A DNA stretch of 64,000 nucleotides, taken from a virus. The notes beneath the pieces were generated by a model. That model made no database searches and was not told the origin of the DNA. It saw only the letters and a list, made by a program, of their open reading frames with translations. The stretch lies in the IMG/VR virus record IMGVR_UViG_3300044995_000220. One strand, given 5' to 3'. The position numbers were made by a program, and so were the translations under genes. This document shows, piece by piece, positions 1 through 23,048 of the stretch; positions within the stretch are counted from its first letter, which is position 1; each line of letters starts with the position of its first letter.

Positions 1-1383
1 TGCACCTCGCGTTGTTTGATATTGGTGCCCGGTGTACGGATCTGTTAGCGTAAGAAGATCAGTTTTTGCAGGTTCAGTTGCACGATAGTATGCGCCAGGT
101 CCGATAGATAGTTGGCCAAAATTGCTAGGCGCATATGCTTTTTGTCGTAGATAGTCTGTGATGCCGCCGCGCTTTTCAATCCATTCGCTAAATGGAGCGA
201 TTAGATCGTCGTTTACGGCGTCGGCGCGAAATTCGACAAGCGCGCCTAGTTTGGTCTCGACGTCGGGGTAACGTGCAATGATCTCGTTTAGTACTGGCTC
301 TAGCGCAACGAGGCGATCGAGGTCTGCATCACTTGGTGTAATGCCGGCTGTCTTAGCAAATAGATCAATTACTTCGCCTGTTGCTAGCACGACACCACGC
401 GATGTTAAAGACGCTAGTGTGCGTGTTACCCCAGCTGTTTTTGCTGTGGTGTAGATGTCATCAGGTAGACGGGGCCATTCGCGTACGAGCTCTTCGGCTT
501 GTACGCCGTAAGTGCTGTTGAGGGCTTTGGCCGTTTTGACAGCATTTGTACGAATTTCAATTGCGCGAGATTCATATGATCGGAGCTGTTCTCCAAGGTC
601 TGCGCTATAGCGTAGCGGTGCTTCGCTAGCGACTTTTTTCAGCATCCAGCCTGTAGGATCTGCTGGGCGAAAAACGAAGCTAATATCGAAAAATTTTGGG
701 CTTGGGTTCAGCACTGAAACTTTGCGACCGTCAGGTAGTACGCGGCGCAGCATTTGTCGTGTATGTTCGCAATACTGCGCGCGTGTTGGTGCGCGGTGTC
801 CGCAGATGGTACAGACATCCCATCGAACATGGCACCCCATACTGACGGCGGGGAAATCCCCGTCAGCGATGCGTTGTGCAATTTCTGGATCACGGCTGTT
901 GACGAATTTTAGTAGTAGTTCAACTCGGTGCATGTACGAGTTGTATAGTGCTTTGGTAATCCATCCGAGGGATTTTGTTGGGTCTTTGTTAACATGGTGT
1001 TTGTAGATACCACCATATCTTTCAAACGTTTGGTAATGGTGATGTAGTGTTTCAGGCTCAGAGACCCAGCCGTCGAGAGATTTGGTGCACTCTGGATGGC
1101 CACATGAGGCGAGTTCACCAACTTTGTATGGCGCATTTGGGAAACCGTCGCCGTTACGGTTATCGTCGTAGAATTCGTATGCGCCTAGGGCGTTGACAAG
1201 GATGTACGAGATACCTTCTTCTGGTTGTATTGTTGAAAGGAAGTCATAGAGCGGCGACTGGCCTTCGGCGAATGCGCGTTTTTCAATGCTCAAACCGCCG
1301 TGTGGGCCGCGCCACGCGACTAACTGTACCGTTGGTTCCCCGGTTTTTGGGAAGCGCGCATCTAGTTCTAGGAGCTTTTCCAT
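1..1383 (-). CDS. Prohead/capsid maturation protease with C-terminal extension (3'-truncated by window edge)
   Basis: Not in the ORF track. Translated by hand from ATG at 1383, open to position 1: MEKLLELDARF...YILVNALGAYEFYDDNRNGDGF...IYKHHVNKDP...DFPAVSMGCHVRWDVCTICG...YCEH...KFFDISFVFRPAD. The His, VSMG Ser and DISFV..PA pattern matches HK97/T4-fold phage prohead proteases; lies in the portal operon. Confidence 0.8.
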   Translation of the reverse strand, partial: MEKLLELDARFPKTGEPTVQLVAWRGPHGGLSIEKRAFAEGQSPLYDFLSTIQPEEGISYILVNALGAYEFYDDNRNGDGFPNAPYKVGELASCGHPECTKSLDGWVSEPETLHHHYQTFERYGGIYKHHVNKDPTKSLGWITKALYNSYMHRVELLLKFVNSRDPEIAQRIADGDFPAVSMGCHVRWDVCTICGHRAPTRAQYCEHTRQMLRRVLPDGRKVSVLNPSPKFFDISFVFRPADPTGWMLKKVASEAPLRYSADLGEQLRSYESRAIEIRTNAVKTAKALNSTYGVQAEELVREWPRLPDDIYTTAKTAGVTRTLASLTSRGVVLATGEVIDLFAKTAGITPSDADLDRLVALEPVLNEIIARYPDVETKLGALVEFRADAVNDDLIAPFSEWIEKRGGITDYLRQKAYAPSNFGQLSIGPGAYYRATEPAKTDLLTLTDPYTGHQYQTTRGA

Positions 1384-1568
1384 TGTATAGAAGAATATGT
1401 CGTTAGCGTGTGACGATATTAACACACAGCGCTAAGGACGACAGCGTTGTGCATGCGGTGTGTAGCACCTAGTAACATAGCAGGCGCACCGACACGCAAT
1501 GCACTTCGAAGTCGATTTTTGTCAAGTGTTCTGTTTTTATCGAACACGTTGTATGCATTACTTACGTA

Positions 1569-3059
1569 TTATGCCTTTATTGAGGGTTTGAAATTAAACT
1601 TTTCAATTAACTCTTTTTCTATATCTTTGATTTCTTTTTTCACACTATTTATCCAGTATTGTATCTCCGCTTTTTCTTCACGGGTTTTAGCGTTTTTGAG
1701 TTGCTTCTCCAATCTTGCCAAGTTTTTATGTCTAAAGTTGTATGTGTCGATAAGTTCTTCCTTAGGTGTCAGCATCGGTGTTGACTTAGTCGCTGTCTGC
1801 TGCGGTGCTTGTTGAACCGCTGGCGGGTGCGGCGCTTGTTGAACCGCTGGCGGGTGTGGCGCTTGTTGAACCATTGTCTGCTGCGGTGCGGGTTGTTTCG
1901 CTGGCGGGTGTGGCGCTTGTTGAACTGCTGGCGGGTGTGGCGCTTGTTGAACTGCTGGCGGGTGTGGCGCTTGTTGAACCGCTGGCGGGTGTGGCGCTTG
2001 TTGAACCGCTGGCAGGTGCGGTGTTGGCTGTGTTTTTTTCATCGATTTCAATGTTTCTCTTATTTCTTTGTATGCGTTTTCCAATTGTCGTTTACGTTGT
2101 GGCAAATTACGAGTTTCTTCTCGTACTAGTGACAAACTGTCGCGCATAAATTTGTTTCTATTTGAAAGGCCTCTCAGAGAGTATCCATAGCCATAGCCGC
2201 TTGCTCCGCCTAGTGCCGCGCCCATTAGACCTAGCCTTAACGCGCCACGCAATCTGTCATCATCATCAGCAAGTGCGCCAGCGCCTGCTCCCATAATTCC
2301 GCCTGTGATGGCGCCTCCTATACTAGGTATAATTGGATTTTTTATAAATTTTTTATAGAGTTTTGACTTATCCCAGTTAGCCCATTTAAAGTGTGTTTCG
2401 TGACTTAGTTTTGGTATTTCTAGCAAATCTCTTGATTTGGCTAAGTATTTTTTCGAGGCTTTGTTGATTGCTTTTGCTAGTGAGTTGCCTTTCGTTATTT
2501 CGCGGGTCACTAGCGCTGAAAGCGGAGCATTGAGCGCTGCACCTGTTGCAGCGCCAGCTAAGCCGTAACGCAATGCTCCTCTAACTGGATCTTCGCTGTC
2601 GGTAACTGCGCCGATACCCGCACCGAGAGCACCGCCAAGAGTGGTACCTGCAAGAGTGCCGCCGGCAGTAGCTAGCCACGGGTTTTTTCTAAGTGTTTTA
2701 TTGACACCCAAAATATGCATTTTAACATTGGCATTTTTTTGAAATTGGTTAAAGTCTCGCAGCGCAGATTCGGCGTTTAGATTGCGCAAAAATTCAATTT
2801 CAGATAGTGTATAGCTACCGTCGGCTGCAAGCTTATCCAGGGTTTCGTCAACTATGGCGGCGCCGACTAGCGACGTGACGAGGGCCTCTCGTGTTGCGCG
2901 GTCTGCACTCAATTTAGTACCAGCGTCACTCGATGCCCAAGCGTCCAATGCAAGGTGAGCTAAACCTTCAAGTAAAGTGGGACCTTGCTGTGCGGCCGCT
3001 GTTTTGATATTGCGCCAAAGTGATCGCGCTTCGTAAGGCTTTATGGCGTTATTTATCAT
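1569..3059 (-). CDS. Putative virion internal/ejection protein with glycine-zipper helices and Pro/Gln repeats
   Basis: 496 aa ORF; GxxxG runs (AGGTLAGTTLGGALGAGIG; IGGAITGGIMGAGAGAL; LGLMGAALGGASGYG), QQAPHPPAV repeats, C-terminal charged helix. Confidence 0.55.
   Translation of the reverse strand: MINNAIKPYEARSLWRNIKTAAAQQGPTLLEGLAHLALDAWASSDAGTKLSADRATREALVTSLVGAAIVDETLDKLAADGSYTLSEIEFLRNLNAESALRDFNQFQKNANVKMHILGVNKTLRKNPWLATAGGTLAGTTLGGALGAGIGAVTDSEDPVRGALRYGLAGAATGAALNAPLSALVTREITKGNSLAKAINKASKKYLAKSRDLLEIPKLSHETHFKWANWDKSKLYKKFIKNPIIPSIGGAITGGIMGAGAGALADDDDRLRGALRLGLMGAALGGASGYGYGYSLRGLSNRNKFMRDSLSLVREETRNLPQRKRQLENAYKEIRETLKSMKKTQPTPHLPAVQQAPHPPAVQQAPHPPAVQQAPHPPAVQQAPHPPAKQPAPQQTMVQQAPHPPAVQQAPHPPAVQQAPQQTATKSTPMLTPKEELIDTYNFRHKNLARLEKQLKNAKTREEKAEIQYWINSVKKEIKDIEKELIEKFNFKPSIKA
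1803..2020. repeat. In-frame 27-bp tandem repeat (QQAPHPPAV, about 6-7 copies with one interruption)
   Basis: Unit ggcgcttgttgaac(c/t)gctggcgggtgt repeated within the 1569-3059 CDS. Confidence 0.95.
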
Positions 3060-3306: not shown

Positions 3307-4745
3307 TACGCATCACGCCCTTTTGCGTTTTGGATGAATTTTTCAGTTTCAGCCATCAAACGGATTGTCGCAAAATCTAGTCCGGATCCGTGCATTTTTG
3401 CCATAGTTGCTTGCCGAAGAAAGCTGCGAGTTGCTGATGGATTTTTAGCGATTGACGGCGCAAAATTTTTGAGTGTGTCGTATGCATCGATCAATCCTTT
3501 AGGATTTTCACGATATTCAGCTTGGAGCATGTCGTCACTTTCTAGTGCTTTTTGGAATGCTTCGCGGTGTTTTGGATCATCGAAAAACTTTTTCTTGAGG
3601 ACTTTATGAACGGCGTCGATTGGTTCTCCTACAAATTTTTGAGCAAGCTGGTTGGCCAGCGCCTGGGCCATGGCGTTCTGCATTAGAGGATAGACTTGTG
3701 TAGACGCTGCCTGCTTTTCTTCAGCGAAGTCATCGTAACTGGCGTATACAGACATTGTTGGCATAGGTGTCGTCATGTCGTACGCCGCGTTGTTCATGTA
3801 ATCTTGTATGCGGGCGTCCTGTTCAGCGGCAGTTGGTCCTCCCCGAAGTAGAGATGAGCCGAGCGCGAGACCACCAACGGTTAGTCCGATTGGTAATGCA
3901 TTACGCTCGATCCAACCTGGTTCAAGCGTTGAACTATAATTATCTGGGATTTCGGTCGCAGCTACGTTTTGTTGCGCCTGGTGTGAAGTTTGAGTAGTGG
4001 GTGTTGAAGTTTGAGTAGTGGGCGTTTCGGGAAGTGCGGGAGTTTGAGCAGTAGATTCTACGGGAGAAGTGGGAGTTTGAGCAGTAGATTTTGCGGAAGG
4101 AGTGGGAGTTTGAGCAGTAGATTTTGTGGGAAGAGGAGTGGGAGTTTGAGTAGCAGGTTGTGCGTTATGTGATGTGTTAGATGCCGTAGAGGTTGATGCT
4201 TCCTGAGGAGTACGAGTTGCTGGACGCGCCCGGTAATGTGCAGGTACTTTGTGTCCCTGCATTTTGAGGTACTCTTCAGGCGTCATATTTGAGTAATTGT
4301 TACGCCACGCGCGTCGATTAGCGAGTAGTCCATGCTGTCGCGCAAGTTGCGCAGCATTACGTAATTCCTGCTCTTCTCGCTGTAGCCTTCGTAATTGTGC
4401 GACGGCTTTATCGGCTGCGCGCACTGCGGAGAATTCTTGTTTTGCTCCGGCTAGTGCGCCGCGCAAGCGTTCGCTCATACGCGCAAAAAAACCAGGACCT
4501 CTTGCACCAACACCGACGCCTTGTGCGACGTTCGTTGTCAGTAGGCCTTTACGTGGTAGTGCGCCATGAGTATGCAGCGTATTGATTGCACGTTGGAGTG
4601 CTGCACGTGTTTTTTGGTTGCGCGCTGCTTCTGCCGCACCTTGACGAAATCCGCGTAGACCTGCGGCGATTTGGTGAAAAATATTGGCGTTTTTTTCTAG
4701 GTTAGCGTCAATGTATGAAAGTACTTCGTTAGTAATGTTATCCAT
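3306..4745 (-). CDS. Putative virion internal protein with basic N-region, Thr/Pro linker and one hydrophobic helix
   Basis: 479 aa ORF; Arg/Ala-rich N-half, STAQTP repeats, LPIGLTVGGLALGSSLL segment, helical C-domain. Confidence 0.6.
   Translation of the reverse strand: MDNITNEVLSYIDANLEKNANIFHQIAAGLRGFRQGAAEAARNQKTRAALQRAINTLHTHGALPRKGLLTTNVAQGVGVGARGPGFFARMSERLRGALAGAKQEFSAVRAADKAVAQLRRLQREEQELRNAAQLARQHGLLANRRAWRNNYSNMTPEEYLKMQGHKVPAHYRARPATRTPQEASTSTASNTSHNAQPATQTPTPLPTKSTAQTPTPSAKSTAQTPTSPVESTAQTPALPETPTTQTSTPTTQTSHQAQQNVAATEIPDNYSSTLEPGWIERNALPIGLTVGGLALGSSLLRGGPTAAEQDARIQDYMNNAAYDMTTPMPTMSVYASYDDFAEEKQAASTQVYPLMQNAMAQALANQLAQKFVGEPIDAVHKVLKKKFFDDPKHREAFQKALESDDMLQAEYRENPKGLIDAYDTLKNFAPSIAKNPSATRSFLRQATMAKMHGSGLDFATIRLMAETEKFIQNAKGRDA
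3988..4155. repeat. Degenerate in-frame tandem repeats (STAQTPT / TQTSTP linker)
   Basis: Recurring gggagtttgagcagtagatt and gaagtttgagtagtgg units in the 3306-4745 CDS. Confidence 0.85.
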
Positions 4746-5598
4746 GACGCGTAACTTTCTTTAGGTTAGCAATTTTTGTTGCGATTTTGTTTTGGCGTTC
4801 GATAAGTGTTTCAAACTTAGCACGAATTTCCATAGCAACTTTAAGGCGATTCGTAAGCTCGTCTGGTATACCGACCCATTTTTGTTGTAATTCGGCGAGC
4901 TTCATTTTGACTTCGTTTTCTGCTGCACCTTCTCCTAATTCACTGCGGCCGCAGCGGTAACGAATAGCATTCAGCTCTGGTAACACATCGGCACCAAAAA
5001 GTGCCACTGCGTTTTTTTCGAAATCGTCGTGGTTCCAATTTTGGTATCGTGTATGTTCGACTATAGCGTTTATGGCGTCATCCCATGCGAAGTTCAATTG
5101 ATGGCGCTCGATCGCGAGATCGGCAGCTTGTTTTTCTGCGCGACGTAGTTCTACGAATGGGGAACGATAGGATGGTAAGAAATTATCGATTTCGTGGGTC
5201 AGTGCAGCAATTTTTTCTCGTGCGAAGAGTTTAGGGTTTGGAGGAGGAGGCGCGTATTCGTCAGGTAAATCTGGATATTCAGCCTCAGCTTGTTTTGTGT
5301 GAGCAACCGCTACAGTTTGTCGTAGATTTTCAATTACGGCTTCTGGGTCAGCTAGTTCAAAATAAGGTGAGCGATCTGCCTGCCCTTTTAATGCTGCGTA
5401 TTTCTGCTCAAATGCTTTGGTGTTGGTGTTGCGGCAGAGGCGGCGGATTTGTTCGGGGTTGAGACCGTTGTCGCGTGCAACTTTTGTTGCGAGTTCATTC
5501 AGTGACGCGCCGTTTTGGTCGCGGCCGGCCCAAAAAGCACGCGCGATGGCGGTTGCCTCGCGATCAAAGTCAGCGTTATCCCATGTAGCCATCGGCAT
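4738..5598 (-). CDS. Hypothetical head-operon protein (286 aa)
   Basis: Long ORF in operon; helical, C-terminal coiled coil. Confidence 0.75.
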   Translation of the reverse strand: MPMATWDNADFDREATAIARAFWAGRDQNGASLNELATKVARDNGLNPEQIRRLCRNTNTKAFEQKYAALKGQADRSPYFELADPEAVIENLRQTVAVAHTKQAEAEYPDLPDEYAPPPPNPKLFAREKIAALTHEIDNFLPSYRSPFVELRRAEKQAADLAIERHQLNFAWDDAINAIVEHTRYQNWNHDDFEKNAVALFGADVLPELNAIRYRCGRSELGEGAAENEVKMKLAELQQKWVGIPDELTNRLKVAMEIRAKFETLIERQNKIATKIANLKKVTRHG

Positions 5599-6413: not shown

Positions 6414-9146
6414 TTATGTCGTGCGCTGATTTTTAGGTAACAGTTGGTCGCCGTACTGTTCTAACGTTAGAATCGCATCGCCCAGCATACGGAATACGTC
6501 GCGGACGACTTGCTCCATTGTTATATAAGCTTCTTCTCCAATTCGTTCGCGGATTTGCTTGCTTTTTATGTAGAGCAGCAAAAGTGTGCGTCCTAGGCGA
6601 TCGAGCGCATTGTCAAGTGAAGGTAAGTAATTTTGAAGGAGAGAACGGATACTACGCACGTTAGCAAGTGACGCTACCGCCGCTACGTCGAAGACTCCGT
6701 CTTGATCGAGTTCAATAGCTTGGTCAAGGAATTGTGGTGCAATTTGTTCGGCAAAAAGTGTTGGGTTTGGTTCTTTAGTCATTACCGGTTGCGGTAGAGA
6801 TTGCCCTTGCATTGCATTTGGATCACCGCTTTGCATCGCGTTCGGATCAACGTTTTGCATCGCGTTCGGATCAACGTTTTGCATCGCGTTTGGATCAACG
6901 TTTTGCATCGCGTTTGGATCAACGTTTTGCATTGCGTATGGATCACTGCTTTGCATTGCGTATGGATCACCGCTTTGCATTGCGTATGGGTCTACGTTTT
7001 GCATCGCGTTAGGATCAACGTTTTGCATTGCGTATGGAACAGCTTCCTGCATTAGTGGATAGCCTGGCCCTCCCTGCATGAAATATTGTTGATTCATATC
7101 TGGAACGGGTGCCATAGCTGATTGCCCCATCATGTTTTGTGCTGGTCCCGCTACCATGCTTGCTGCTCCAATGGGAGCGGCCATTGCGCCACCACCCTGG
7201 TCGATGCTTTGGGCTCGGTTTTGAAGTTCAAGAAGCATTTGTTCCATTTGGTCTAGCGCTGCACGCTGCGCTTGGATTAGTTGCATCTTTTCTGCGATGG
7301 CGAGGTCAATCCCTGTCATTTGTGGTGGTGTTTGTGTAGCAGCCATCGCATTTGGATCTTGCATTTCGGGCGGAAGTTCGTTGTTATTAGGTGCAGCCAT
7401 TTTCGGCATGGCCCATGCTTTGAGTGGTAGATCATTAGCTACTGCTTCAACGACGCGCGAAGCATCTGGAACGCTTACGCCGTATAGATTGGCAACTTTG
7501 ACGACAGCTTCGAGTGCTGATAGCTTGGTGCGTTCATTACCTACACGGAACCCGTCATGATCACGTGCAACTTTGATACGTATGGCGCCAGTTTTTTCAC
7601 TGATCTTTTCTTCGATTGCTCTCATAATTAGCTGTGGGCGCGTAAGTAAATCACGTTCGGTAATCTGTTTTTTGATTGGAAACCAACGATAGCTTTGTGG
7701 GAAAACCATGACGTTTTGCGAGGGAGGCGCCACGATTTTTGATCCCCGCATTTTTTTTGAAATTACAATTGTTATATTGTTATCAGTACCAAAAGAAATT
7801 ATGTCACCGCGAGTTGTAGGTTGCTCCGCGGTGAATGGCTCGGTTGCACGTAGTGTCAAATCTTCAGACGAGATCAATACGCCTCGTTGATTTGCTTGTG
7901 GGCTTTCACGTGTCAATGCTTTAAGCATTGCAGTGATTTCACCGAATGTATCGTGGACGATGGGCTCCGCGACGAGTTCTGAAATGCATCCGCCTCGCCC
8001 ATCAACAAAAAGCACGAGGTACTTTCGGTCGCTTTTGTTGTATGGGGAAGGTACTTCGTTGAGTGTTTTACGGTTGTATGCACCGTATGCCATCACTTGA
8101 TGGTCTGTTTTCGGTGGTTCCACGCAAATTGGATGTGTTACAATGATTGCTTTTTCATTTGTGCCATCTGCTAAGTATACACGGTAAACGCCGGGGTACT
8201 CGGGTGTTGTTAGCGCTAGTGCTTCTTCGTTGAATACAGCGATATCACTTAGCGGACCAGTCCGTCGGTCCTTGATATAGAAGCCGTAGTAACGCAGTGC
8301 TTGGTAAGCTCTAGGTACTTCGTCTGGTGCGATTTCTTTCCGCACTTCTTGCAGAGGGGTACCTGCGACGGCAAGATAAACATCGTGCTTAAGTGGTATT
8401 TCAGTACGGAATCCAGCCGCTGTTTTGGCTGGCGCTTCACGCATAGCGAATGCGTCGCGTAGGACGTCCGCGCCGTAAATTTCCGCCATTTTACGGAGGT
8501 AACGCGGATGCTTTGTTAACCACTTCGTGTACGCTGTTTTGATGCCATCTGGCAAGCGGCTCACTAGTTCAGGAAAAACAAATGGGGCGTCGTTTGCCGC
8601 GCGTTTTTCGTTTTCATATGCAGCGCGAAATACTTCGAAAAGTTCTTCGTCGCTGACTGTTGTAGGATCAAATTCGGCAGCGTAACTATAACGTCCCGTT
8701 GTAGGCGGTACGACAATATTTCTGATGTCGACGTCTGTGTTAAGATCTTGGGGTAGTTCAACGCCTTGGCCGAGGGAGCTTATACCGTTGGTAGTGACTT
8801 TTTCGATCCATGCAGCTGTAAGCGGATAAAATCGGTCTTTTGACCGTACATACATTATATCGAGGGGCTTTACGGCGTTATCTACAACTACTGCTGGGAC
8901 AAATAGAATCTCAGCTTCACGTTTGAGGATGAACGCACCGATGCCTTCACCAGCGGGTGCGTCAGTTGCTAATACGCGGAAGGATACGAGATCTCGATAT
9001 AGTTCTGGGTGAGTCTTTTGAAATGCTTGATACGCAAGGTCTGAAAATCCTTTAGAAAAAAGCTCCTCTTCGTCGCTAGGACTTACGGGCTGAGCGAAGC
9101 TTTGTGTACGAGGCGACTGTGAGAGCGGAAAACCGTTCATGGGCAT
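6414..9146 (-). CDS. Large hypothetical head-operon protein (910 aa) with Met/Gln/Pro-rich repeat region
   Basis: Long ORF; AGGAG Shine-Dalgarno upstream; AMQNVDPN repeats. Confidence 0.8.
6806..7037. repeat. In-frame 24-bp tandem repeat (AMQ[NV/SG]DP[N/Y], about 9-10 copies)
   Basis: Unit ggatcaacgttttgcatcgcgtt(t/c) and variants within the 6414-9146 CDS. Confidence 0.95.
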
Positions 9147-9160
9147 TGGGAAGAGCTCCT

Positions 9161-9204
9161 AAAAAATAAACGCCTACCGCTAAAGTATACGGCGGTAGGC
9201 GTTT
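9161..9204 (-). terminator. Putative intrinsic terminator (13-bp stem, 11-nt loop, T-tract)
   Basis: aaacgcctaccgc (9168-9180) pairs with gcggtaggcgttt (9192-9204); followed on minus strand by ATTTTTT; downstream of 9260-10219. Confidence 0.65.
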
Positions 9205-9259: not shown

Positions 9260-10219
9260 TCACTCTTCTTCTTCTTGTGTGTTTTGATTGTGCTCCCTGA
9301 TTGCGTGTTCTTTGATTGCGTCCAGAGACTTAGACATTGTTAGAGCACCTATCGGCGCGCCAATTGCCATGCCAATACCGTGTCTTTTGAGTCCGCTAAT
9401 AAGTGGCTTATTATGGCGATAGATTCCACGTGCCACTCGTTTTGCCTTTCCTTTAATTTTTGCGGCTGCGCGTCCGATAGCTTTGCCTACGCTACGAGCT
9501 TTGTTTTTTAGACTTTTCAATGTATCTTTTGCCGCTGCAACTTTTGGATTAATTAGGACATGGTCTTCGTCATCGACGTTATAGTCATCATCGATTAGTC
9601 CATGTTTAGCAAGTACATATTCGATTGCTGCAACAAGCGCAGGGTCTGGTTCTACTCCATGTTCTTGATGCGTATCTAGTACATGATCAAGTGTGTTGTC
9701 GAGTTCTTCTGCTGTTTTTACGTTTTCAATGATATCAACCATTACTTCAAGGCCAGGTGTGCCACTGTCAGCTAGAGCTGCTGATGCAAGTACAAGTTTT
9801 GGTGTTACAGGTGCATTTCGATTGGCAAGGTTTTCTACAAACATCGCAGCACGCGCGATTTTTTCACCTGTTTCCTCATTATTCAAATTTTCAGTAGCAT
9901 CTCTCATTTTTTTTCTGTGAGCAGCGTTGCTTTCTAGAGCTTTGCTAAAAGCATGACTGAAAACTAGATCACTACCTAGCGTTGCGCCGATTACTACCCC
10001 AGGACCGTGTCTTCTAGCTGCGCGCAGAAGTGATTTACCTAATGAGCGTGACTTCTTATTAACTTTTGATGCTGCGCGGCCTAAGGCTTTACCCGCAGCG
10101 CGCGCTTTGTTTTTAATAGTTTTCAATACATCTTTTGCAGCTGCTTCTTTTGGGTTGTATGCAGCGTTATAGATGTCGTAAAAGTACGGCAGTCTGGAAT
10201 TTTGAGTAATCCATGACAT
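9260..10219 (-). CDS. Modular head-operon protein, paralog of 10334-12514
   Basis: Basic/Gly-zipper - acidic module - basic/Gly-zipper; shares EKIARA...PVTPKLVLASAALA...VKTAEELDNTLDHVLD with its neighbour. Confidence 0.85.
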   Translation of the reverse strand: MSWITQNSRLPYFYDIYNAAYNPKEAAAKDVLKTIKNKARAAGKALGRAASKVNKKSRSLGKSLLRAARRHGPGVVIGATLGSDLVFSHAFSKALESNAAHRKKMRDATENLNNEETGEKIARAAMFVENLANRNAPVTPKLVLASAALADSGTPGLEVMVDIIENVKTAEELDNTLDHVLDTHQEHGVEPDPALVAAIEYVLAKHGLIDDDYNVDDEDHVLINPKVAAAKDTLKSLKNKARSVGKAIGRAAAKIKGKAKRVARGIYRHNKPLISGLKRHGIGMAIGAPIGALTMSKSLDAIKEHAIREHNQNTQEEEE

Positions 10220-10265
10220 GGTCGGGGTGTTCCTCGTTTTAGTACATTGGGGTTATTTTATTAAA

Positions 10266-10305
10266 ATGAATGCCTGTTACTATGCATACTATAACAGGCA
10301 TTCAT
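10266..10305 (-). terminator. Intergenic hairpin, possible terminator (14-bp perfect stem, 12-nt loop)
   Basis: atgaatgcctgtta (10266-10279) pairs with taacaggcattcat (10292-10305); short T-run after it on the minus strand. Confidence 0.5.
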
Positions 10306-10333
10306 ATTCGGTGAAATAGTTGTGAATGTAGGA

Positions 10334-12514
10334 TCATTCTTGGCGCAGCTGCGCAATGTAACCTGCCCGCAGTTCTTCAGGCATACCAGCAAGTGCAATT
10401 ACGTGAGCACGTTTTTCTTTTTGTGACATCGTTGCAGGGAGTAAACCACCCCACTTTGCGGCCGCAGCTTTTACTTTTTCTTCAAAGTTTACGCGTTTAT
10501 TGTTACGCGCATTTAGCAAAGCGCCAACTTGCCCGACATTTGGCATATCAGTTTCACCGTTGTCTGTGATGTATTCGTCGGGTTCGCGATTTTCTTTGTC
10601 GAGTTCAGCGTTGGCATTGTATTCCGCTGCATCTTCAAGTGTATTTTCGTCCACTTCATTCAGTGAACCGTCTGCTGCTGCTTTCAACACTTCGAGAAGC
10701 TGTGCTTCTTTTTCGTATTCGTTTTCATCGAACTCTTGCTCTTCTTGGTCCGCGCCTCGATTATGCAGAGCATGCATTGCAGCAGCACCGCCAGCTGCGC
10801 CCAGAATTGCACCAACAGCGGCTCCAGGACCATGCCTCTTGGCCGCTCTTCCGACTGCCGCTCCAGCCCTAGCTGCTTGTCTCTTAACCTTTGAAGCTGT
10901 CGTTCCTAGGGTGTTTTTAGTCTTAATTGCTGCACGTCGGATTGCTTTACTTGCGCTACGTGCAGCGCTTCGAATCTTCTTCATTACATCCTTTGCAGCG
11001 GCGACTTTTGCGTCGTCGTTTTCATCAGGTTCATAGTCATTGTCTTCATCAATCAAACCTCGATCTGCGAGTTCTTGTGCGACCGCAGAAACAAGTTTTG
11101 TATTTGGTTTAGCGCCATGCTCTTCTTGTGCATCCAGTACGTCATCAATAGTGTTGTCAAGTTCTTCAGCCGTTTTTACGTTTTGCATAATATGCGCCAT
11201 TACTTCGAGGCCAGGAGTACCTGCCTCGGCAAGCGCTGCTGACGCAAGAACAAGCTTTGGCGTCACAGGTGCTTCGCGATTGGCGAGACCTTCTACGAAC
11301 ATTGTGGCGCGCGCGACTTTTTCAGCTTCCTCTGAAACATCTTCTTCTACATCTTGGTCCACGTCCCGATTATGCAAAGCATGCATTGCAGCAGCACCGC
11401 CAGCTGCGCCCAGAATTGCACCAACAGCGGCTCCAGGACCATGCCTCTTGGCCGCTCTTCCAACTGCTGTTCCAGCCCTAGCTGCCTGTCTCTTAACCTT
11501 TGAAGCTGCCGTTCCTAGGGTGTTTTTAGTCTTAATTGCTGCACGTCGGATTGCTTTACCTGCGCTACGTGCAGCGCTTCGAATTTTCTTCATTACATCC
11601 TTTGCAGCGGCGACTTTTGCTTCGTCGTCGCTGTCATAGTCACTGTCATCGTCACTGTCATCGTCGTAATCCTCATCAATCAAACCGTGATCCGCGAGTA
11701 CCTGTTCAATCGCTGCAACGAGCTCTGGATCAGGTTCAACGCCATGCTCTTGTTGTTTATCTAGTACGTGATCAAGAGTGTTATCGAGTTCTTCGGCAGT
11801 CTTTACGTTCTCAACAATGTGGGCCATCGTTTCAAGGCCAGGAGGACCCCCTTCAGCAAGCGCTGCTGACGCAAGAACAAGCTTTGGCGTCACGGGTGCT
11901 TCACGTGCAGCGAGGTCTTGAATAAACAGCACAGCTCGCGCAATCTTTTCACTCGATTGTTTATCTAAGTGCGTGAGGCTGTTGTCGATCGCGGGGCCTT
12001 TCGGAGCCATTGGGTGAGGAATTTGCCTACCGACTACACCGCCTTCAGGCATGTCGGTGTTACCTGCGCCTACAAGGTATTGGAGCGACGATCGATTTTC
12101 TTCGTCGAGATCAGCGAGTGCGTTAGTTTCCGCTGCGCTCTCTAGCGTGTTAGGTCCAGTATCGTTTAGTGACGCTTCTTCTGCGGTTTTGGCCATCATG
12201 TAGGAGGCAATTTTCATTGCTCGCTCTTCTAACGGCATATAGGATGCCTGCTTTGCCATCGCTTGGACCGAGGCGGAGGGCCCATAGCCGCGCCTTACTG
12301 CCTCATCTGATGCGTCGATGAGCCATTGGCCGATCTTGATGTAGGCATCGTTCGGCAGCGGTCCTTCTAGGATCTGTGGTAGGCCGAGGTCAGTTGAAAT
12401 TTTATCGAAGACTCCGATGGCGAGGTCGTCATCTGCAAAAGGCGCCATGCGTCCAGCATCGGACATGCCGTCAGCCATGCCCTTGAGAAATGTGCGAGTA
12501 AATAGAGTTGACAT
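10334..12514 (-). CDS. Modular head-operon protein with internal 609-bp duplication
   Basis: 726 aa; two tandem copies of acidic module plus basic Gly-zipper module; similar N- and C-terminal motifs (SLN..NTLE.AA..NA...LD.ENR...Y...G.TDMP). Confidence 0.88.
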   Translation of the reverse strand: MSTLFTRTFLKGMADGMSDAGRMAPFADDDLAIGVFDKISTDLGLPQILEGPLPNDAYIKIGQWLIDASDEAVRRGYGPSASVQAMAKQASYMPLEERAMKIASYMMAKTAEEASLNDTGPNTLESAAETNALADLDEENRSSLQYLVGAGNTDMPEGGVVGRQIPHPMAPKGPAIDNSLTHLDKQSSEKIARAVLFIQDLAAREAPVTPKLVLASAALAEGGPPGLETMAHIVENVKTAEELDNTLDHVLDKQQEHGVEPDPELVAAIEQVLADHGLIDEDYDDDSDDDSDYDSDDEAKVAAAKDVMKKIRSAARSAGKAIRRAAIKTKNTLGTAASKVKRQAARAGTAVGRAAKRHGPGAAVGAILGAAGGAAAMHALHNRDVDQDVEEDVSEEAEKVARATMFVEGLANREAPVTPKLVLASAALAEAGTPGLEVMAHIMQNVKTAEELDNTIDDVLDAQEEHGAKPNTKLVSAVAQELADRGLIDEDNDYEPDENDDAKVAAAKDVMKKIRSAARSASKAIRRAAIKTKNTLGTTASKVKRQAARAGAAVGRAAKRHGPGAAVGAILGAAGGAAAMHALHNRGADQEEQEFDENEYEKEAQLLEVLKAAADGSLNEVDENTLEDAAEYNANAELDKENREPDEYITDNGETDMPNVGQVGALLNARNNKRVNFEEKVKAAAAKWGGLLPATMSQKEKRAHVIALAGMPEELRAGYIAQLRQE
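10759..11950. repeat. Intragenic direct duplication, offset 609 bp (203 aa)
   Basis: Blocks 11368-11620 and 10759-11011 are nearly identical at DNA level; the upstream acidic modules are also similar. Confidence 0.9.
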
Positions 12515-12547: not shown

Positions 12548-13225
12548 CTAAGTTGTTTGAGACGATTCGTCAGTGTTAACAGTTTTATTGAGTGGAGAGC
12601 GGCTCTTCCACACACGCATTAGGTGCCGTGGCACATTGAGTTCGAGGTTTTCAGGTGTTGGTGGAGGAGCAAGCTTTGGATCAAACTTTGAACCAACGTA
12701 GCGTGCAGCACCTTGCACTGCGCCTTGTACTGGGATGCCAAGCAAGCCTAGGCGCGCTGTGAAGGGCGCCACTACCATACCTGACACCGCATGCGCAATA
12801 TCGCCACGTCGTGTCGCTGGGTCTCCTTGTAATATAATGTTACCAAGTTCTAGTGCTGGCATGCCAAGTGATAGCGCTTTCACCCATGTCGGAGACCCAG
12901 GTGAAAGATAGAAATCTTTGATTTGTCCTCCTATTGTGCGCGCGAGGCTACCTGTACGCTTGTAGCGCTGGGACAGTTGTTGCGCTAGGGTGATTGGGCT
13001 GCCGAAGATGGCTTCTCGGCCAAATTCAGCGACGTGTTTACCGAATGTTTTGAGTTTATTTGAAAAGCCGCGACCAGCAGGCGCTATTTTGTGCTCACGA
13101 AATAGGTCCTTTAGACCGTATCGGCCAAAAATGCGCGAGCGCGCTGCTGTCTTTACGGTGTTTAGGCGTTCTTCGAAGTCAGAATGTACCACTGGAACCA
13201 TGACGGAATTCCGCGCCGTAAGCAT
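12548..13225 (-). CDS. Hypothetical head-operon protein, basic with hydrophobic C-terminal helices
   Basis: ORF 12548-13270 in track; ATG at 13225 (or 13201) reduces overlap with the upstream RNAP gene; start uncertain. Confidence 0.65.
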   Translation of the reverse strand: MLTARNSVMVPVVHSDFEERLNTVKTAARSRIFGRYGLKDLFREHKIAPAGRGFSNKLKTFGKHVAEFGREAIFGSPITLAQQLSQRYKRTGSLARTIGGQIKDFYLSPGSPTWVKALSLGMPALELGNIILQGDPATRRGDIAHAVSGMVVAPFTARLGLLGIPVQGAVQGAARYVGSKFDPKLAPPPTPENLELNVPRHLMRVWKSRSPLNKTVNTDESSQTT

Positions 13226-14984
13226 ATGCTGGTACGGGATGTGTGCTGTGAATGTTTGAAGTTTCACCAAAATGTGCGGCTTCTAGGATTGTATTTTTGA
13301 GATAACGGTGAGCAAGACGCGCCATCCAATCCTTTTCTAACAAAGGATTCATAGTAAATGGTTTCATTACGAATTCAACTGGGGGCATGCTGCGATTGAT
13401 GTAAACCTCAGTTACGCCATGTGAGGCTAGTTCTCGTGCTAGAGCAGGCGTAATAAGAGTACCAACGGTATGATGCAGCACTTCTTGTCCAAGTCGCTGT
13501 CCGACAGCATTATCTAGCGGTACGCGCGTTGATCCTTCGCGATAGGCTTCGCGAAAGGCGTTATAGTTGATAATGTCGCCTTTTAGTAGTTCAGGGTGGT
13601 TTGGATCTGTGTCAAGTAGACGTACATGATTAATTTCACTTTTTGCAAGTAGTTCGAGATGACGTCGATCAAGATTAATGCCCTCGTTTTTGTAGAGGTT
13701 GTGCATTGCGTCAACAAAATACGCGCGTCCAGCACCGAGGCCTTTATATCCGACTATTTTTGCAGGATGAGGCACGCCATCGGTTAGCGCGTCACCGCGT
13801 TCAACCACGTCACCTTTTTTTACACGCAATGTTAGGTCAGGATGGGTATATACTTTCTTTTCGCCAATATAGATGTAGTGCCCTCCTTGCGGGGCTTTCT
13901 CAATTTTCGTTATAGTTCCATGCTCAGGAGCGAGAACTGCTTCATGTCGAAATGATGCGGGCACTTCTAATAATTGGCGTACACCTTTTAGTCCTGTTGG
14001 AAATTTATTCGTTGATTTGATTGTAAGTGTACCGTGACGTGATGAAAGCGCCATCTGTGTTAACGGTTCAGCCATAGCTTGCGCGGCTCGTACGCCGACA
14101 GGCGTACCTATTTGGTGTAATTTTCCTTTTTCATTGTGCCCTTGGCACATTTGGCAAACACCGCTTTGAGCGATGCACGTCATAGGTGAGCGTACAAGTA
14201 GACGATCAACATGTTTGGCTTTTAGTTGTTGAACAATCTGTGGCGTGACTAGAGTATTGCGGGGTAAACCATGATCAGCCTGTGTAAATCGGTCTAGGAT
14301 ATGGCTGTCATCGATTGACATCTTTACGCCGTTCATGGTTCCGCAGTCAGTTGTCGTCACAACAGTGGAAATAGTGTTTGCAACGAGTACTTTGGCCATT
14401 TCGCCAGGCTCCGATACTGAAATGCGAGCCTTAACTTCGTTTTCGCGGATTTCTGGGCCAGTCATCCAGTACTGCGCTGGAGTGAGTCCTTCGGCGTAAG
14501 ATCGATCAATTAGTTGGTGAATCACGCCATGTTTAGGGTGCACTGTTGCAAGCGGCGTTGCGACAATTTTCATAAGTTGGGCTGGATTCCCGCGCGCGCC
14601 AGATAATGCCATATGTGTCATTGAACCGGGGTGTTTTTTAGTATGAGCGAGTAGTTTCTCTTGTGTTTCAACAATCAATCGTTGACGCGCTGTTGGGTCT
14701 TTGAGTTTTTCAAGTTTTGCAAGTGCGGGACGAATGATAGCATCACGTTCTTTGTAATTAGGCTCGATGTCGTCTAAACCGACGGAAATTCCTTCAAGCG
14801 TTGCAATTTCGTCCCCACGTCGTTTAAGTGCTTGTATTGTTGAAACGTATTTTTGTGGGTCAGTTTTGGCAAGATTGACAAGATGGTCATGTAGTTCTTT
14901 GTTTGTAATTGGGCCACGGATTTCGTAGCCCTTAGGCATTACATCATTGATTAAAAAATGTCCAACTGTCGTCGCCATAGGCAA
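13179..14984 (-). CDS. rpoC: RNA polymerase beta' subunit, C-terminal half (RpoC2-like)
   Basis: SGARGN, bridge-helix region YAEGLTPAQYW...PGEMAKVLV, DCGT plus SPMTC...GVCQMCQG zinc site, trigger loop GVRAAQAMAEPLTQMALSSRH, GLKGVRQLLE. ATG at 14978 is the likelier start. Confidence 0.93.
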   Translation of the reverse strand: MPMATTVGHFLINDVMPKGYEIRGPITNKELHDHLVNLAKTDPQKYVSTIQALKRRGDEIATLEGISVGLDDIEPNYKERDAIIRPALAKLEKLKDPTARQRLIVETQEKLLAHTKKHPGSMTHMALSGARGNPAQLMKIVATPLATVHPKHGVIHQLIDRSYAEGLTPAQYWMTGPEIRENEVKARISVSEPGEMAKVLVANTISTVVTTTDCGTMNGVKMSIDDSHILDRFTQADHGLPRNTLVTPQIVQQLKAKHVDRLLVRSPMTCIAQSGVCQMCQGHNEKGKLHQIGTPVGVRAAQAMAEPLTQMALSSRHGTLTIKSTNKFPTGLKGVRQLLEVPASFRHEAVLAPEHGTITKIEKAPQGGHYIYIGEKKVYTHPDLTLRVKKGDVVERGDALTDGVPHPAKIVGYKGLGAGRAYFVDAMHNLYKNEGINLDRRHLELLAKSEINHVRLLDTDPNHPELLKGDIINYNAFREAYREGSTRVPLDNAVGQRLGQEVLHHTVGTLITPALARELASHGVTEVYINRSMPPVEFVMKPFTMNPLLEKDWMARLAHRYLKNTILEAAHFGETSNIHSTHPVPAYAYGAEFRHGSSGTF

Positions 14985-15349: not shown

Positions 15350-15729
15350 ACTCCTCCGTACGAAATGTTAGGACTTAGCCCGTTGCGATCACCAGGTTCA
15401 TTTGGTAACCCCATAGAGGCACCCCAAATTGGATCACCTGTCCGTTTTGGGGTTATTGGAGTGTCACCGTAGCCAAAATTATTTTCAGAGAAAAGTTTAG
15501 CAAGCGCTTCGATTGGTTCACCAGACTCATCAAGCAGAGCGTATTTAGTAGCAACTTTGCGGATTGCACGCGCTCTAACTTCGTTAGCAAATTTTTGTCT
15601 TGCAGCAGTGTTGAAGCTTTTTGTTACGCCGTAAAAGCCTGGGTCTTTTTCGAAGTGAAAGCCTCTTTGACGTTTTTTTAGTCGTGTAGTTATGCCGCGT
15701 ACAATGTTATTTAAATCTGCCATCAGCAT
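15346..15729 (-). CDS. Hypothetical protein (127 aa)
   Basis: Fills operon gap with overlapping start/stop codons. Confidence 0.7.
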   Translation of the reverse strand: MLMADLNNIVRGITTRLKKRQRGFHFEKDPGFYGVTKSFNTAARQKFANEVRARAIRKVATKYALLDESGEPIEALAKLFSENNFGYGDTPITPKRTGDPIWGASMGLPNEPGDRNGLSPNISYGGV

Positions 15730-16208
15730 CCACTCCGAAGGTAGCGGCGCATATCGTCAGCGTGCTGTTGATCTATGAAGGCACCTTCTTGTGCTAAGGC
15801 GTTGAGTGCTACGTCATTGGTAGTTGCTCGGAATAGCTCTGACCATTTAGCTACAACTTCAAGTTCCATAGAGAGTAGTGTTTTGAATACCGCACGAGGG
15901 TCATTTAGTCCGACAATCGCTGGAGGTGACGGATTGGCGTGTGCGTCTGCGCCAAGCGCTGTGATCTTCTTGTTCAATTTATATATAGATTCACGCTCTT
16001 CTTTGATGTGGTCTTGGAAATGTTGGTAGATCCCGTCGCGATAAAACGCTCGTAACTGGTCGCCGTAGTGAATGTACGCAAGTAGTAACGAATACTTCTT
16101 TGTTAGAATGTCCTGGAGGCGCGAGACATGCGCGCACATTGCTGGCGTGGCGTTTTCAAAGGACTTTGATTTTGTAGGGTCAAGTAAGTCATCTAAGAAG
16201 TCGAACAT
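15723..16208 (-). CDS. Ferritin/bacterioferritin-like four-helix-bundle protein (degenerate ferroxidase centre)
   Basis: LLAYIHY...FQDHIKEERESIYKLNKKITALGADA...LLSMELEVV...IDQQHAD follows the Bfr pattern (QY..H / EE..H / RI..LGG.P / E / EE.H) with several ligands changed. Confidence 0.7.
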   Translation of the reverse strand: MFDFLDDLLDPTKSKSFENATPAMCAHVSRLQDILTKKYSLLLAYIHYGDQLRAFYRDGIYQHFQDHIKEERESIYKLNKKITALGADAHANPSPPAIVGLNDPRAVFKTLLSMELEVVAKWSELFRATTNDVALNALAQEGAFIDQQHADDMRRYLRSGC

Positions 16209-23021: not shown

Positions 23022-23048
23022 TGCGTCTCTAACCGAAAGAAGTAACAC

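Follow-up and report, generated by a model that had tools for sequence, protein, structure and literature searches.

Two adjacent genes on the minus strand of an uncultured phage, located between positions 9,260 and 12,514 of a 64,000-nucleotide stretch of DNA (the window), encode proteins built of repeated acidic and basic modules. The question raised by this locus is what these proteins do and whether they are cut into their modules. The initial annotation had described them as polyproteins, in which K-x-A motifs delimit acidic pro-segments and cecropin-like cationic peptides. Here, we compared this reading with the gene neighbourhood, the protein family, the structural models and the distribution of the motif.

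Organization of the two modular genes

The open reading frames of 726 and 319 aa were present exactly where the initial annotation had placed them (Table 1), and the set of three acidic and four basic modules common to the two genes was confirmed at the DNA and protein level. A 300-nt repeat family with three copies (71-75% identity) corresponds to the acidic module, and a 98-nt family with four copies (65-76% identity) corresponds to the start of the basic module. A further 300-nt pair, with 91% identity and an offset of 609 nt, represents the two basic modules, B1 and B2, of the long gene. Protein alignment reproduced the quoted motifs EK[IV]ARA, VTPKLVLASAALA, VKTAEELD, GLID and K[VE]AAAKD as well as the Gly/Ala helix. 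The KRHG[PI]G hinge was also found as quoted, with the exception of one copy, which reads RRHGPG. The 609-bp offset had been taken as a sign of a recently duplicated unit. This is true for the basic copies, which are recent or homogenised (dS of 0.13 for B1 vs B2), but not for the acidic copies, which are old (dS of 0.82 for A1 vs A2). Since the basic copies alone are recent or homogenised, there was no simple recent duplication of the whole unit. The plus-strand open reading frames over the region (10500-11036, 11040-11639 and others) were judged to be antisense artefacts, which mirror the repeats of the Ala/Lys/Arg-rich coding strand.

Table 1. Coordinates of the features in the window, with the evidence for each.
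Feature	Residues	Position	Strand	Evidence or description
Long gene P0001	726 aa	10334..12514	(-)	ORF, translation, iterated profile searches, AF2 model mefb6c08c5c73
Conserved N-terminal helical domain	1-110	12185..12514	(-)	pLDDT 86-98
Repeat R	111-185	11960..12184	(-)	Profile searches, AF2 model, DNA repeat D4 pairing with R'
Acidic module A1	186-280	11675..11959	(-)	Five-helix domain, pLDDT about 92-96, alignments
Poly-Asp/Ser/Tyr linker after A1	281-298	11621-11674	(-)	
Basic module B1	300-381	11372..11617	(-)	K-V-A start, cationic amphipathic helix, HGPG hinge, Gly-zipper helix
Acidic module A2	397-491	11042..11326	(-)	Alignment, profile searches, AF2 model
Basic module B2	503-584	10763..11008	(-)	91-92% nucleotide identity to B1
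Repeat R' and C-terminal helix-loop-helix	598-726	10337..10723	(-)	Profile searches, AF2 model
Terminator-like hairpin and U tract, just downstream of long gene		10262..10305	(-)	dG -20.6 kcal/mol, z -5.8, 0/200 shuffles as stable
Short gene P0002	319 aa	9260..10219	(-)	ORF, profile searches, AF2 model m1f43248f7c83
Basic module B0	24-92	9944..10150	(-)	DNA repeat D3, charge and periodicity analysis
Acidic module A3	119-213	9581..9865	(-)	Five helices, pLDDT 93-97
Basic module B3	226-300	9320..9544	(-)	HGIG hinge
Terminator-like hairpin and U tract, just downstream of short gene		9160..9204	(-)	dG -22.7 kcal/mol, z -5.6, 0/200 shuffles

The long protein consists of an N domain, a repeat R, the units [A1, B1] and [A2, B2], a second repeat R' and a C-terminal helix-loop-helix. 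Repeat R carries a conserved NTPE...LD..NR...Y..G.G.T..P..G.VG segment; its first half is helical, and its second half is a conserved coil. The short protein begins with a leader of 23-26 aa ending in K24-E-A26, followed by basic B0, acidic A3 and basic B3, and it does not have the N, R and C parts. The AF2 models of both proteins are all-helical and elongated. The acidic modules were modelled as a confident five-helix domain (pLDDT 90-97), A3 being 79% identical to A1 in amino acid sequence, and the C-terminal helix-loop-helix of the long protein reached a pLDDT of 96-97.

The long gene is a member of a family without annotation, which comprises about 99 representative clusters and in which the two ends are conserved and the middle varies. 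The conserved frame comprises the N domain, the two repeats and the C-terminal helix-loop-helix, arranged around a hypervariable insert. Full-length members span about 300-890 aa, which is an about three-fold range within one clade. An uncharged Gly/Ala stretch of at least 16 aa was found in 50 of 72 family inserts, and many members have the acidic module without a recognisable basic module. A comparison of module copy number in related phages, which the initial annotation had suggested, revealed close relatives with one acidic and one basic module in a single gene. The sequence cluster of the short protein has one member, and a gene of this kind was not found in relative loci L005 or L012.

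Neither blastn for the region nor tblastn for a homologue gave any match in cultured phages. In the whole genome of Salmonella phage Arash, the one relative with a proteomic study, profile searches detected no family homologue, which is not proof of absence, and none was found in Vibrio phage D69. Searches of PHROG, Pfam and PDB-sequence profiles with the two proteins and with 33 family members offered no credible family. One family member matches a 'head maturation protease' PHROG at 3e-5. Structure searches remained in the noise range for helical bundles and long helices: the best Foldseek E value for the 726-aa model was 0.53 in the PDB and 0.02 in BFVD. The 319-aa model was likewise in the noise range (VIA-align wide Z of 7.4 or less, AFDB clusters at E 0.17 or worse, ESM Atlas TM of 0.27 or less). 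An ESM Atlas feature search returned only unnamed viral clusters with scores below 0.8.

Head-module neighbourhood and the K-x-A motif

The genes come from an uncultured myophage with a genome of about 170-190 kb, distant kin of Arash; its clade is represented in metagenomes by 988 relatives of the major capsid protein (MCP). Both modular genes lie inside the head morphogenesis module, in the order portal, RNA polymerase, two modular genes, prohead protease and MCP (307 aa). By synteny with Arash, the genes are bracketed by homologues of the portal (1e-93) and the MCP (2e-62), and they adjoin homologues of the Arash virion proteins gp218, gp220 and gp222. The gp222 homologue is a 649-aa product encoded at window -524..1425, which matches phrog_18299 (head maturation protease) at 4e-10 and shares 39% identity with Arash gp222 in its N-terminal part. 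A prohead maturation protease is thus encoded near the modular genes, as in the case of processed internal head proteins. In close, minimal and long family members, the same order was kept, namely the RNAP beta' C-terminal gene, a ~240-aa gene, the family gene and a ~840-aa gene. The RNAP subunits of Arash are among the most abundant proteins of its particle (PMC10585845), and the phage studied here probably packages its own multisubunit RNA polymerase.

A weak PHROG match of the short gene (8e-5) and the nearest weak viral-library Foldseek rows (E 0.02 or worse) pointed to tail tape-measure proteins. These matches are driven by low-complexity helices, and no such match was obtained for the long gene or the 33 family members. 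Moreover, the tail and baseplate genes are located at 50-65 kb, far from the modular genes, and the length of the family varies about three-fold within one clade. A tape-measure-like function is therefore extremely improbable.

The initial annotation had assigned a K-x-A motif to each module boundary. The motif does stand at each module start, but its frequency within the two Lys/Ala-rich proteins is as predicted from their composition (17 observed vs 12.7 expected, z 1.3). What makes it significant is its conserved position in the family and its enrichment in other head proteins. In the family alignment, K-x-A forms 8 conserved columns, compared with at most 2 for any other X-x-Y pattern. The motif is near-invariant in the N domain at aa 88-90 and 109-111 (75/81 and 84/88 family members). 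Family-conserved columns occur in the R'/C-terminal part at aa 602, 611, 683 and 701, and a further column at aa 673 reads K-R-V in the long protein. In other head proteins, K-x-A ranks at the top of 400 patterns (58 observed vs 30.4 expected, z 5.3), with a similar result for a second set of open reading frames (59 vs 30.5, z 5.8). The z-scores were -1.4 for tail proteins and -1.1 for RNAP, and the background set of other open reading frames showed a mild excess (z 2.7). Arash gp220, gp223 and gp225 are also enriched in the motif.

The position of K-x-A near the N-terminus was also analyzed. Of 15 head-module proteins, 7 carry it at residues 10-32, the short gene product and the MCP among them, vs 10 of 98 other open reading frames (p 0.0016). 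Across 121 MCP homologues, K is kept in 120 and A in 121; this invariance is non-specific because the MCP N-terminus is conserved throughout. Proteomic coverage of the Arash MCP (86.6%) neither supports nor excludes the loss of the first 29 residues. In the variable inserts of the family, enrichment was seen only for K-x-A-[S/A], whose z-score is inflated by the relatedness of the sequences, and not for K-x-A by itself (z 1.2).

As far as can be judged from sequence, K-x-A shows the behaviour of a functional motif in the head proteins of this clade. Together with the nearby prohead protease, it makes polyprotein-like processing a reasonable inference, and processing of the modular proteins by a protease is plausible. 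As the best explanation, we propose that the two genes encode internal head proteins of the prohead-core or ejection type, with a cargo-slot frame, which would be cut at K-x-A by the prohead protease. We give this reading an even chance.

Alternatively, the uncleaved proteins might function as a scaffold, a core or an assembly factor, with K-x-A serving a structural or docking role and the Gly/Ala helices used for packing or membrane anchoring. The all-helical elongated models fit such a function, and the C-terminal helix-loop-helix recalls the coat-binding domains of scaffold proteins, such as that of P22 gp8. The conserved coil segments in R and R' resemble binding peptides, K-T-A-E-E is placed at a helix N-terminus, and K-x-A does not exceed composition in the two proteins. 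However, a separate 183-aa scaffold-like gene, itself with 11 K-x-A (z 6.5), exists between the protease and MCP genes. In addition, K-x-A leaders recur in many unrelated head proteins, as would be expected of a processing or targeting signal more than of a fold feature, and the wide length range of the family suits cargo better than a ruler-like scaffold. We thus regard this alternative as rather unlikely. A predicted complex of the MCP with the last 129 residues of the long protein scored 0.00, which is no evidence either way.

Properties of the basic and acidic modules

The basic modules, about 75-95 aa in length, consist of a 46-59 aa helix with a charge of +14 to +17, followed by an H-G-P/I-G hinge and a Gly/Ala helix. 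The cationic helices are amphipathic over their whole length, with a coherent periodicity of 97.5-99 degrees that was matched by at most 2 of 500 shuffles. Their maximum hydrophobic moment over 18 residues is 0.70-0.83, compared with 0.66 for the N-helix of cecropin A used as a yardstick. In close relatives, the charge of the helices is only +3 to +12 and the mean moment 0.24-0.47, except for one relative at 0.70. The Gly/Ala helices are flanked by basic residues, are borderline for transmembrane segments (KD 0.8-1.46) and, as Gly-zipper helices, were modelled with low AF2 confidence (32-47). GxxxGxxxG Gly/Ala helices of this kind are also typical of the Pfam families Gly-zipper_Omp (PF13488) and Gly-zipper_YMGG (PF13441). 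Weak matches to these families were found in the long gene, in a neighbouring 496-aa protein and in family members, but the motif is short and compositional, and every match is below the Pfam gathering score (for Gly-zipper_Omp, PF13488, at aa 347-382 of the long protein, 21.5 bits vs a cut-off of 25).

It had been claimed that this arrangement is the established cecropin architecture. The cationic amphipathic N-helix, the Gly-Pro hinge and the hydrophobic C-helix are real, and the hydrophobic moment is comparable. On the other hand, a Pfam scan (E <= 0.01) gave no match of either protein to cecropin (PF00272), and the helix is 2-3 times longer than that of cecropin (46-59 vs about 21 aa), with a mostly Ala apolar face of 11/3 periodicity. 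Cecropin is a secreted precursor giving a mature peptide of ~35-40 aa, whereas here the module is embedded in a phage head-module protein without a signal peptide. Judging from these sequences, the modular proteins are not relatives of insect cecropins, and the likeness is a physical analogy only.

The same annotation had assumed that polyprotein precursors release cecropin-like membrane-lytic or DNA-condensing peptides from acidic modules that neutralise their charge. Such release agrees with the end-to-end amphipathic helix and with K-x-A ahead of every module. Charge balance does not agree with it: the A1 domain and the linker stretch carry -12 each, yet the net charge is -42 for the long protein and +10 for the short one. 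The most conserved motif of the acidic module, K-T-A, is nearly invariant in 47 acidic modules and sits mid-domain, with K-T-A-E-E at a helix start in the AF2 models, where it could be a structural helix-capping motif and not a cleavage site. The acidic domain is folded, widely and independently conserved, often present without a basic module, and bears K-T-A in its middle; therefore, it is not simply a neutralising pro-segment. Furthermore, the Pfam scan gave no match to any other antimicrobial-peptide family, a search for standalone basic-module proteins of 52-170 aa found none, helix charge and moment are lower in close relatives, and Asp and Pro residues occur within the hydrophobic helices encoded by the short gene. 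Release of cecropin-like peptides in this form is distinctly unlikely.

The basic flanks of the Gly/Ala helices and the hairpin that each gene has of its own would also suit late membrane proteins outside the virion, active in lysis timing, superinfection exclusion or host membrane remodelling, for which the head-module location would be incidental. This is very unlikely. The portal-to-MCP position of the family gene is strictly kept in all relatives examined, the hydrophobic helices are weak, and inspection of the N-termini revealed no signal-like hydrophobic segment or anchor in either protein. Moreover, the modular proteins have the K-x-A signature and double Gly-zipper modules in common with neighbouring head-module proteins.

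Proposed maturation and its significance

In the case of processed internal head proteins, the conserved frame (N domain, two R repeats, C-terminal helix-loop-helix) would probably direct the protein into the prohead, on either side of a hypervariable insert used as a cargo slot. Here, the slot would hold two units. In each of them, an acidic five-helix domain is followed by a polyacidic linker, a cationic helix, an H-G-P-G hinge and, finally, a Gly-zipper helix. An internal stretch with the order basic-acidic-basic would have been copied into the second gene, which has a new short leader ending in K-E-A. K-x-A, often in the form [E/T]-K-[T/I/V]-A-[A/S/E], would be the recognition motif of the prohead protease of this phage. 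During head maturation, the modular proteins would be cut into pieces, like T4 core proteins and the ejection-protein propeptides of phiKZ and SPN3US. The basic pieces, about 90-100 aa long, would remain associated with the DNA and may be ejected, meeting the host membrane. We infer, rather than observe, the virion location of the modular proteins, their cleavage, the scissile bond and their DNA or membrane activity.

The closest parallel is found in phiKZ-like phages. In SPN3US, which packages an RNAP, the prohead protease gp245 cleaves the paralogous ejection proteins gp53 and gp54, each at several A-X-E sites (PMC10052503). Tandem paralogs in the head module of a myophage and a phage-encoded prohead protease (gp245/gp175) are alike in these phages, phiKZ with its inner-body proteins included. 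The multisubunit RNAP that they package has a probable counterpart here, and their short tripeptide motif, which recurs at N-terminal leaders and several times within a protein, has a candidate counterpart in K-x-A. Their propeptides are cut into several pieces (PMC10052503), whereas cleavage is putative here. In PHROGs and Pfam, they share no sequence or profile similarity with the modular proteins, and their motif is A-X-E or S/A/G-X-E in place of the candidate K-x-A. The phage studied here, about 170-190 kb with a 307-aa MCP, is unlike the phiKZ-like giant phages, and a cargo of cationic helix and Gly-zipper is not described for their ejection proteins. A literature search on glycine-zipper ejection proteins found no papers.

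The prohead core of T4 contains the internal proteins IPI-III with a capsid-targeting leader, and gp22, gp67 and gp68 are cut by gp21. The resemblance would consist in basic internal proteins that travel with the DNA, short leaders removed at a tripeptide and degraded acidic core proteins. However, there is no homology, the T4 motif is L/I-x-E, and the T4 internal proteins are single-domain and not modular inserts in a conserved frame. In adenovirus, pVI, pVII and pX/Mu are cut in the capsid by the adenoviral protease, which frees a membrane-lytic helix and DNA-condensing peptides. This is an analogy only, since the virus is eukaryotic and its protease and motifs are unrelated. A bolder version of our proposal is that a K-x-A-specific protease frees cargo peptides of ~90-100 aa, each with a cationic amphipathic and a Gly-zipper part, which are ejected with DNA and RNAP and permeabilise or bridge the inner membrane; related phages could swap this cargo. 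Such peptides would correspond, in a phage, to adenovirus protein VI and would resemble cecropins in their physical properties; we consider this version unlikely.

If the proposed reading is true, the modular proteins define a protein family, hitherto without annotation, in a large clade of ~180 kb phages that is almost uncultured and apparently packages its own RNA polymerase. K-x-A would then be a testable maturation-protease signature of this clade, unlike the Glu-directed motifs of T4 and phiKZ-like phages and nearer the Ala|Ser rule by which herpesvirus assemblin cleaves. The cationic and Gly-zipper pieces would be candidate membrane-active or DNA-compacting virion peptides. A conserved frame with interchangeable inserts (acidic domain, cationic helix, single or double Gly-zipper) would suggest how phages diversify the proteins that are injected with their DNA.

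Two genes built from acidic and basic modules

The two tandem genes of the initial annotation were recovered as ORFs whose coordinates match those reported exactly. Their source is a 123-kb IMG/VR virus record, ~71% complete, of which the window is a part. A DNA repeat search confirmed that the genes share acidic and basic modules. The acidic module was found as a 300-nt unit in three copies (71-75% identity), and the start of the basic module as a 98-nt unit in four copies. The search also revealed a 300-nt pair of 91% identity at an offset of 609 nt. The motifs quoted for the modules are present in the protein alignment, except that one hinge reads RRHGPG and not KRHGPG.

Coordinates of P0001, P0002 and other features of the region (window numbering unless a contig is named)
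Feature	Position	Strand	Description
P0001 (long gene)	10334-12514	minus	ORF, 726 aa
P0002 (short gene)	9260-10219	minus	ORF, 319 aa
91% identical pair	10708-11007 and 11317-11616		300-nt units
Portal gp204 homologue	21300-23048		tblastn 1e-93
Virion protein gp218 homologue	6414-9146	minus	910-aa gene; tblastn 5.5e-17 and 3e-7 (two segments)
Tandem repeat in gp218 homologue	6807-7038		24-nt unit
gp220 homologue	4738-5598		tblastn 1.4e-4
gp222 homologue	starts at 1425		649-aa gene; tblastn 5.8e-44
MCP gp226 homologue	~2.7 kb past left window edge		307-aa gene; tblastn 2e-62
183-aa protein	-1100..-549, outside window (L009 2042-2590)	plus (L009)	acidic, helical
496-aa head-module protein	1569-3059	minus	Gly-zipper hairpins
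240-aa ORF	12548-13270	minus	upstream of P0001
Ferritin-like gene	15723-16208	minus	Pfam 1.6e-10
Four small genes	L011 6093-7910		adjoin minimal family member
RNAP beta' C-terminal gene	L011 1297-4254		LAGLIDADG insertion

The 609-bp offset had been taken as the trace of a recent duplication of one unit. Codon-level comparison of the copies within P0001 gave a dS of 0.13 for the basic pair B1/B2, in agreement with a recent origin, but of 0.82 for the acidic pair A1/A2, which argues against a single recent event covering the whole unit. Judged from these values, the basic copies are young or homogenised and the acidic copies old. The difference between adjoining modules points to gene conversion, or to a partial or selective re-duplication, inside a single gene. 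P0002 opens with a new 23-26 aa leader, and the rest of it copies the middle of P0001 in the order basic-acidic-basic. It is the only member of its sequence cluster, and no P0002-like gene was found in the related contigs L005 or L012.

Position in the head module

Among cultured phages, Salmonella phage Arash is the nearest relative and three Vibrio phages come next, with 35-36% identity in the RNAP beta/beta' fusion. Correspondences with Arash were determined by tblastn of its proteins against the whole record, and the gp222 homologue also matches a head-maturation-protease PHROG at 4e-10. The protease itself is taken to be the N-terminal part of this 649-aa product, ~260 aa. In Arash particles, the RNAP subunits rank with the most abundant proteins (PMC10585845). 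On the strength of these gene correspondences, the protease match and the RNAP abundance, P0001 and P0002 are assigned to the head module, in the order portal, RNAP, P0001/P0002, protease, MCP. Each of the two genes is followed by a strong terminator-like hairpin. Relatives of the MCP numbered 988 at E <= 1e-10, many of them on contigs of 170-190 kb, and the clade is common in metagenomes and almost uncultured.

Other features were recorded in this region. The tandem repeat of the gp218 homologue (~9.7 copies) encodes AMQNVDPN-like octapeptides, which are absent from Arash gp218 (615 aa). The ferritin-like gene lies between two RNA polymerase genes of the head module, a position kept in the related contigs L005, L006 and L012. 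The 240-aa ORF contains a hydrophobic Gly-rich segment and, with a TTG start, would share 92 nt with the RNAP gene; a gene of similar size occupies the same position in all relatives examined. The insertion in the RNAP gene of contig L011 is consistent with an intein, and in two Vibrio phages (hits H2/H3) a homing endonuclease separates the parts of a split large RNAP gene.

A constant frame with a variable insert

An exhaustive search placed P0001 in a family of 99 representative clusters; no homologue was found in Arash or Vibrio phage D69. Profile mapping revealed a shared frame of N domain, repeat R, variable insert, repeat R' and C-terminal helix-loop-helix. Homologues of ~500-540 aa carry one acidic and one basic module each, minimal members (~300-430 aa) have almost no insert, and contig L005 has a single P0001-type gene. 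Gene position is kept in both a minimal (L011) and a long (L012) member. Other inserts carry the acidic domain together with Pro/acidic linkers and hydrophobic Gly/Ala helices, from one to several, and an uncharged Gly/Ala stretch of at least 16 aa occurs in 50 of the 72 inserts. Some contain double Gly-zipper hairpins, a type also found in the neighbouring 496-aa protein. The latter has two such hairpins with a DDxxRLRxAL turn, as well as ~8 QQAPHPPAV repeats, and the same module occurs in the inserts of the distant members P0028, P0042 and P0085. These common modules suggest exchange among head-internal proteins. Among the small genes next to the minimal member of L011, one has an HExxH motif, and the product of another is 106 aa long, rich in Gly/Ala and has K-x-A sites near its start; in L011, insert functions may be carried by separate genes.

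Structures were modelled by AF2 with family alignments. Both proteins are predicted to be all-helical, with a pLDDT of 86-98 for the N domain and ~96-97 for the C-terminal domain. Each acidic module is predicted as a five-helix bundle (pLDDT 90-97); the cationic helices were modelled with moderate confidence (mostly ~50-84) and the Gly-zipper helices with low confidence (32-47). Fold searches with the models of P0001 and P0002 returned no meaningful match. The cationic helices carry a charge of +14 to +17, within proteins of net charge -42 (P0001) and +10 (P0002). One amphipathic face, with Arg/Lys on the polar and mostly Ala on the apolar side, is kept along 46-59 residues at 97.5-99 degrees, i.e., an 11/3 periodicity, matched by at most 2 of 500 shuffles. 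The hydrophobic moment is comparable to that of the cecropin A N-helix, taken as the yardstick sequence. In close relatives the charge is lower (+3 to +12), as is the mean moment in all but one. The hydrophobic Gly/Ala helices are borderline for membrane spanning. The proposed cecropin likeness of the basic module holds in the physical sense of a cationic amphipathic helix, and not as an evolutionary relationship.

The K-x-A motif and proposed processing

The genes had been proposed to encode polyproteins delimited by K-x-A. Counted over P0001 and P0002 together, the motif does not exceed the level expected from composition. Across the family alignment of 97 sequences, 8 columns conserve it, against no more than 2 for any other X-x-Y pattern, the family shuffle statistics ignoring phylogenetic relatedness. 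K-T-A is the best-conserved feature across 47 acidic modules. In the other head-module proteins, from mechanically called ORFs, K-x-A ranks first in over-representation among 400 gapped pairs (58 observed vs 30.4 expected, z 5.3), and a second ORF set gave 59 vs 30.5 (z 5.8). Elsewhere, z was -1.4 for tail proteins, -1.1 for RNAP and +2.7 for the remaining ORFs. The motif falls at residues 10-32 in 7 of 15 head-module proteins vs 10 of 98 other ORFs (p 0.0016), the carriers including P0002 (K24) and the MCP (K28). The sites of P0002 include K24-E-A26, K168-T-A170 and K226-V-A228. Family columns, K-T-A conservation, head-protein enrichment and N-terminal placement make K-x-A look functional. 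The main rival explanation holds that the proteins act uncleaved, in scaffolding or assembly, with K-x-A as a structural or docking motif. The MCP site is near invariant among 121 homologues (K in 120, A in all 121), although the entire N-terminus is conserved too. The Arash MCP carries K27-E-A29, and Arash gp220, gp223 and gp225 are also enriched in K-x-A. The strongest carrier is the 183-aa protein between protease and MCP, with 11 K-x-A (z 6.5) and several K-T-A-S, which is likely the scaffolding protein.

In view of these patterns the polyprotein idea is reasonable. Two of its parts lack support: the cecropin likeness, which is of a physical kind, and the acidic module as a mere neutraliser, since this module is a predicted folded, independently conserved domain that itself holds the best-conserved site. 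A parallel is provided by the head proteins of SPN3US/phiKZ, whose leaders and multi-cut propeptides are cut at A-X-E (PMC10052503). On the best reading, P0001 and P0002 belong to a new head-internal protein family whose members have a cargo slot and are probably processed by the prohead protease at K-x-A. The basic pieces may serve in DNA compaction, in membrane-surface binding or as an ejection conduit.
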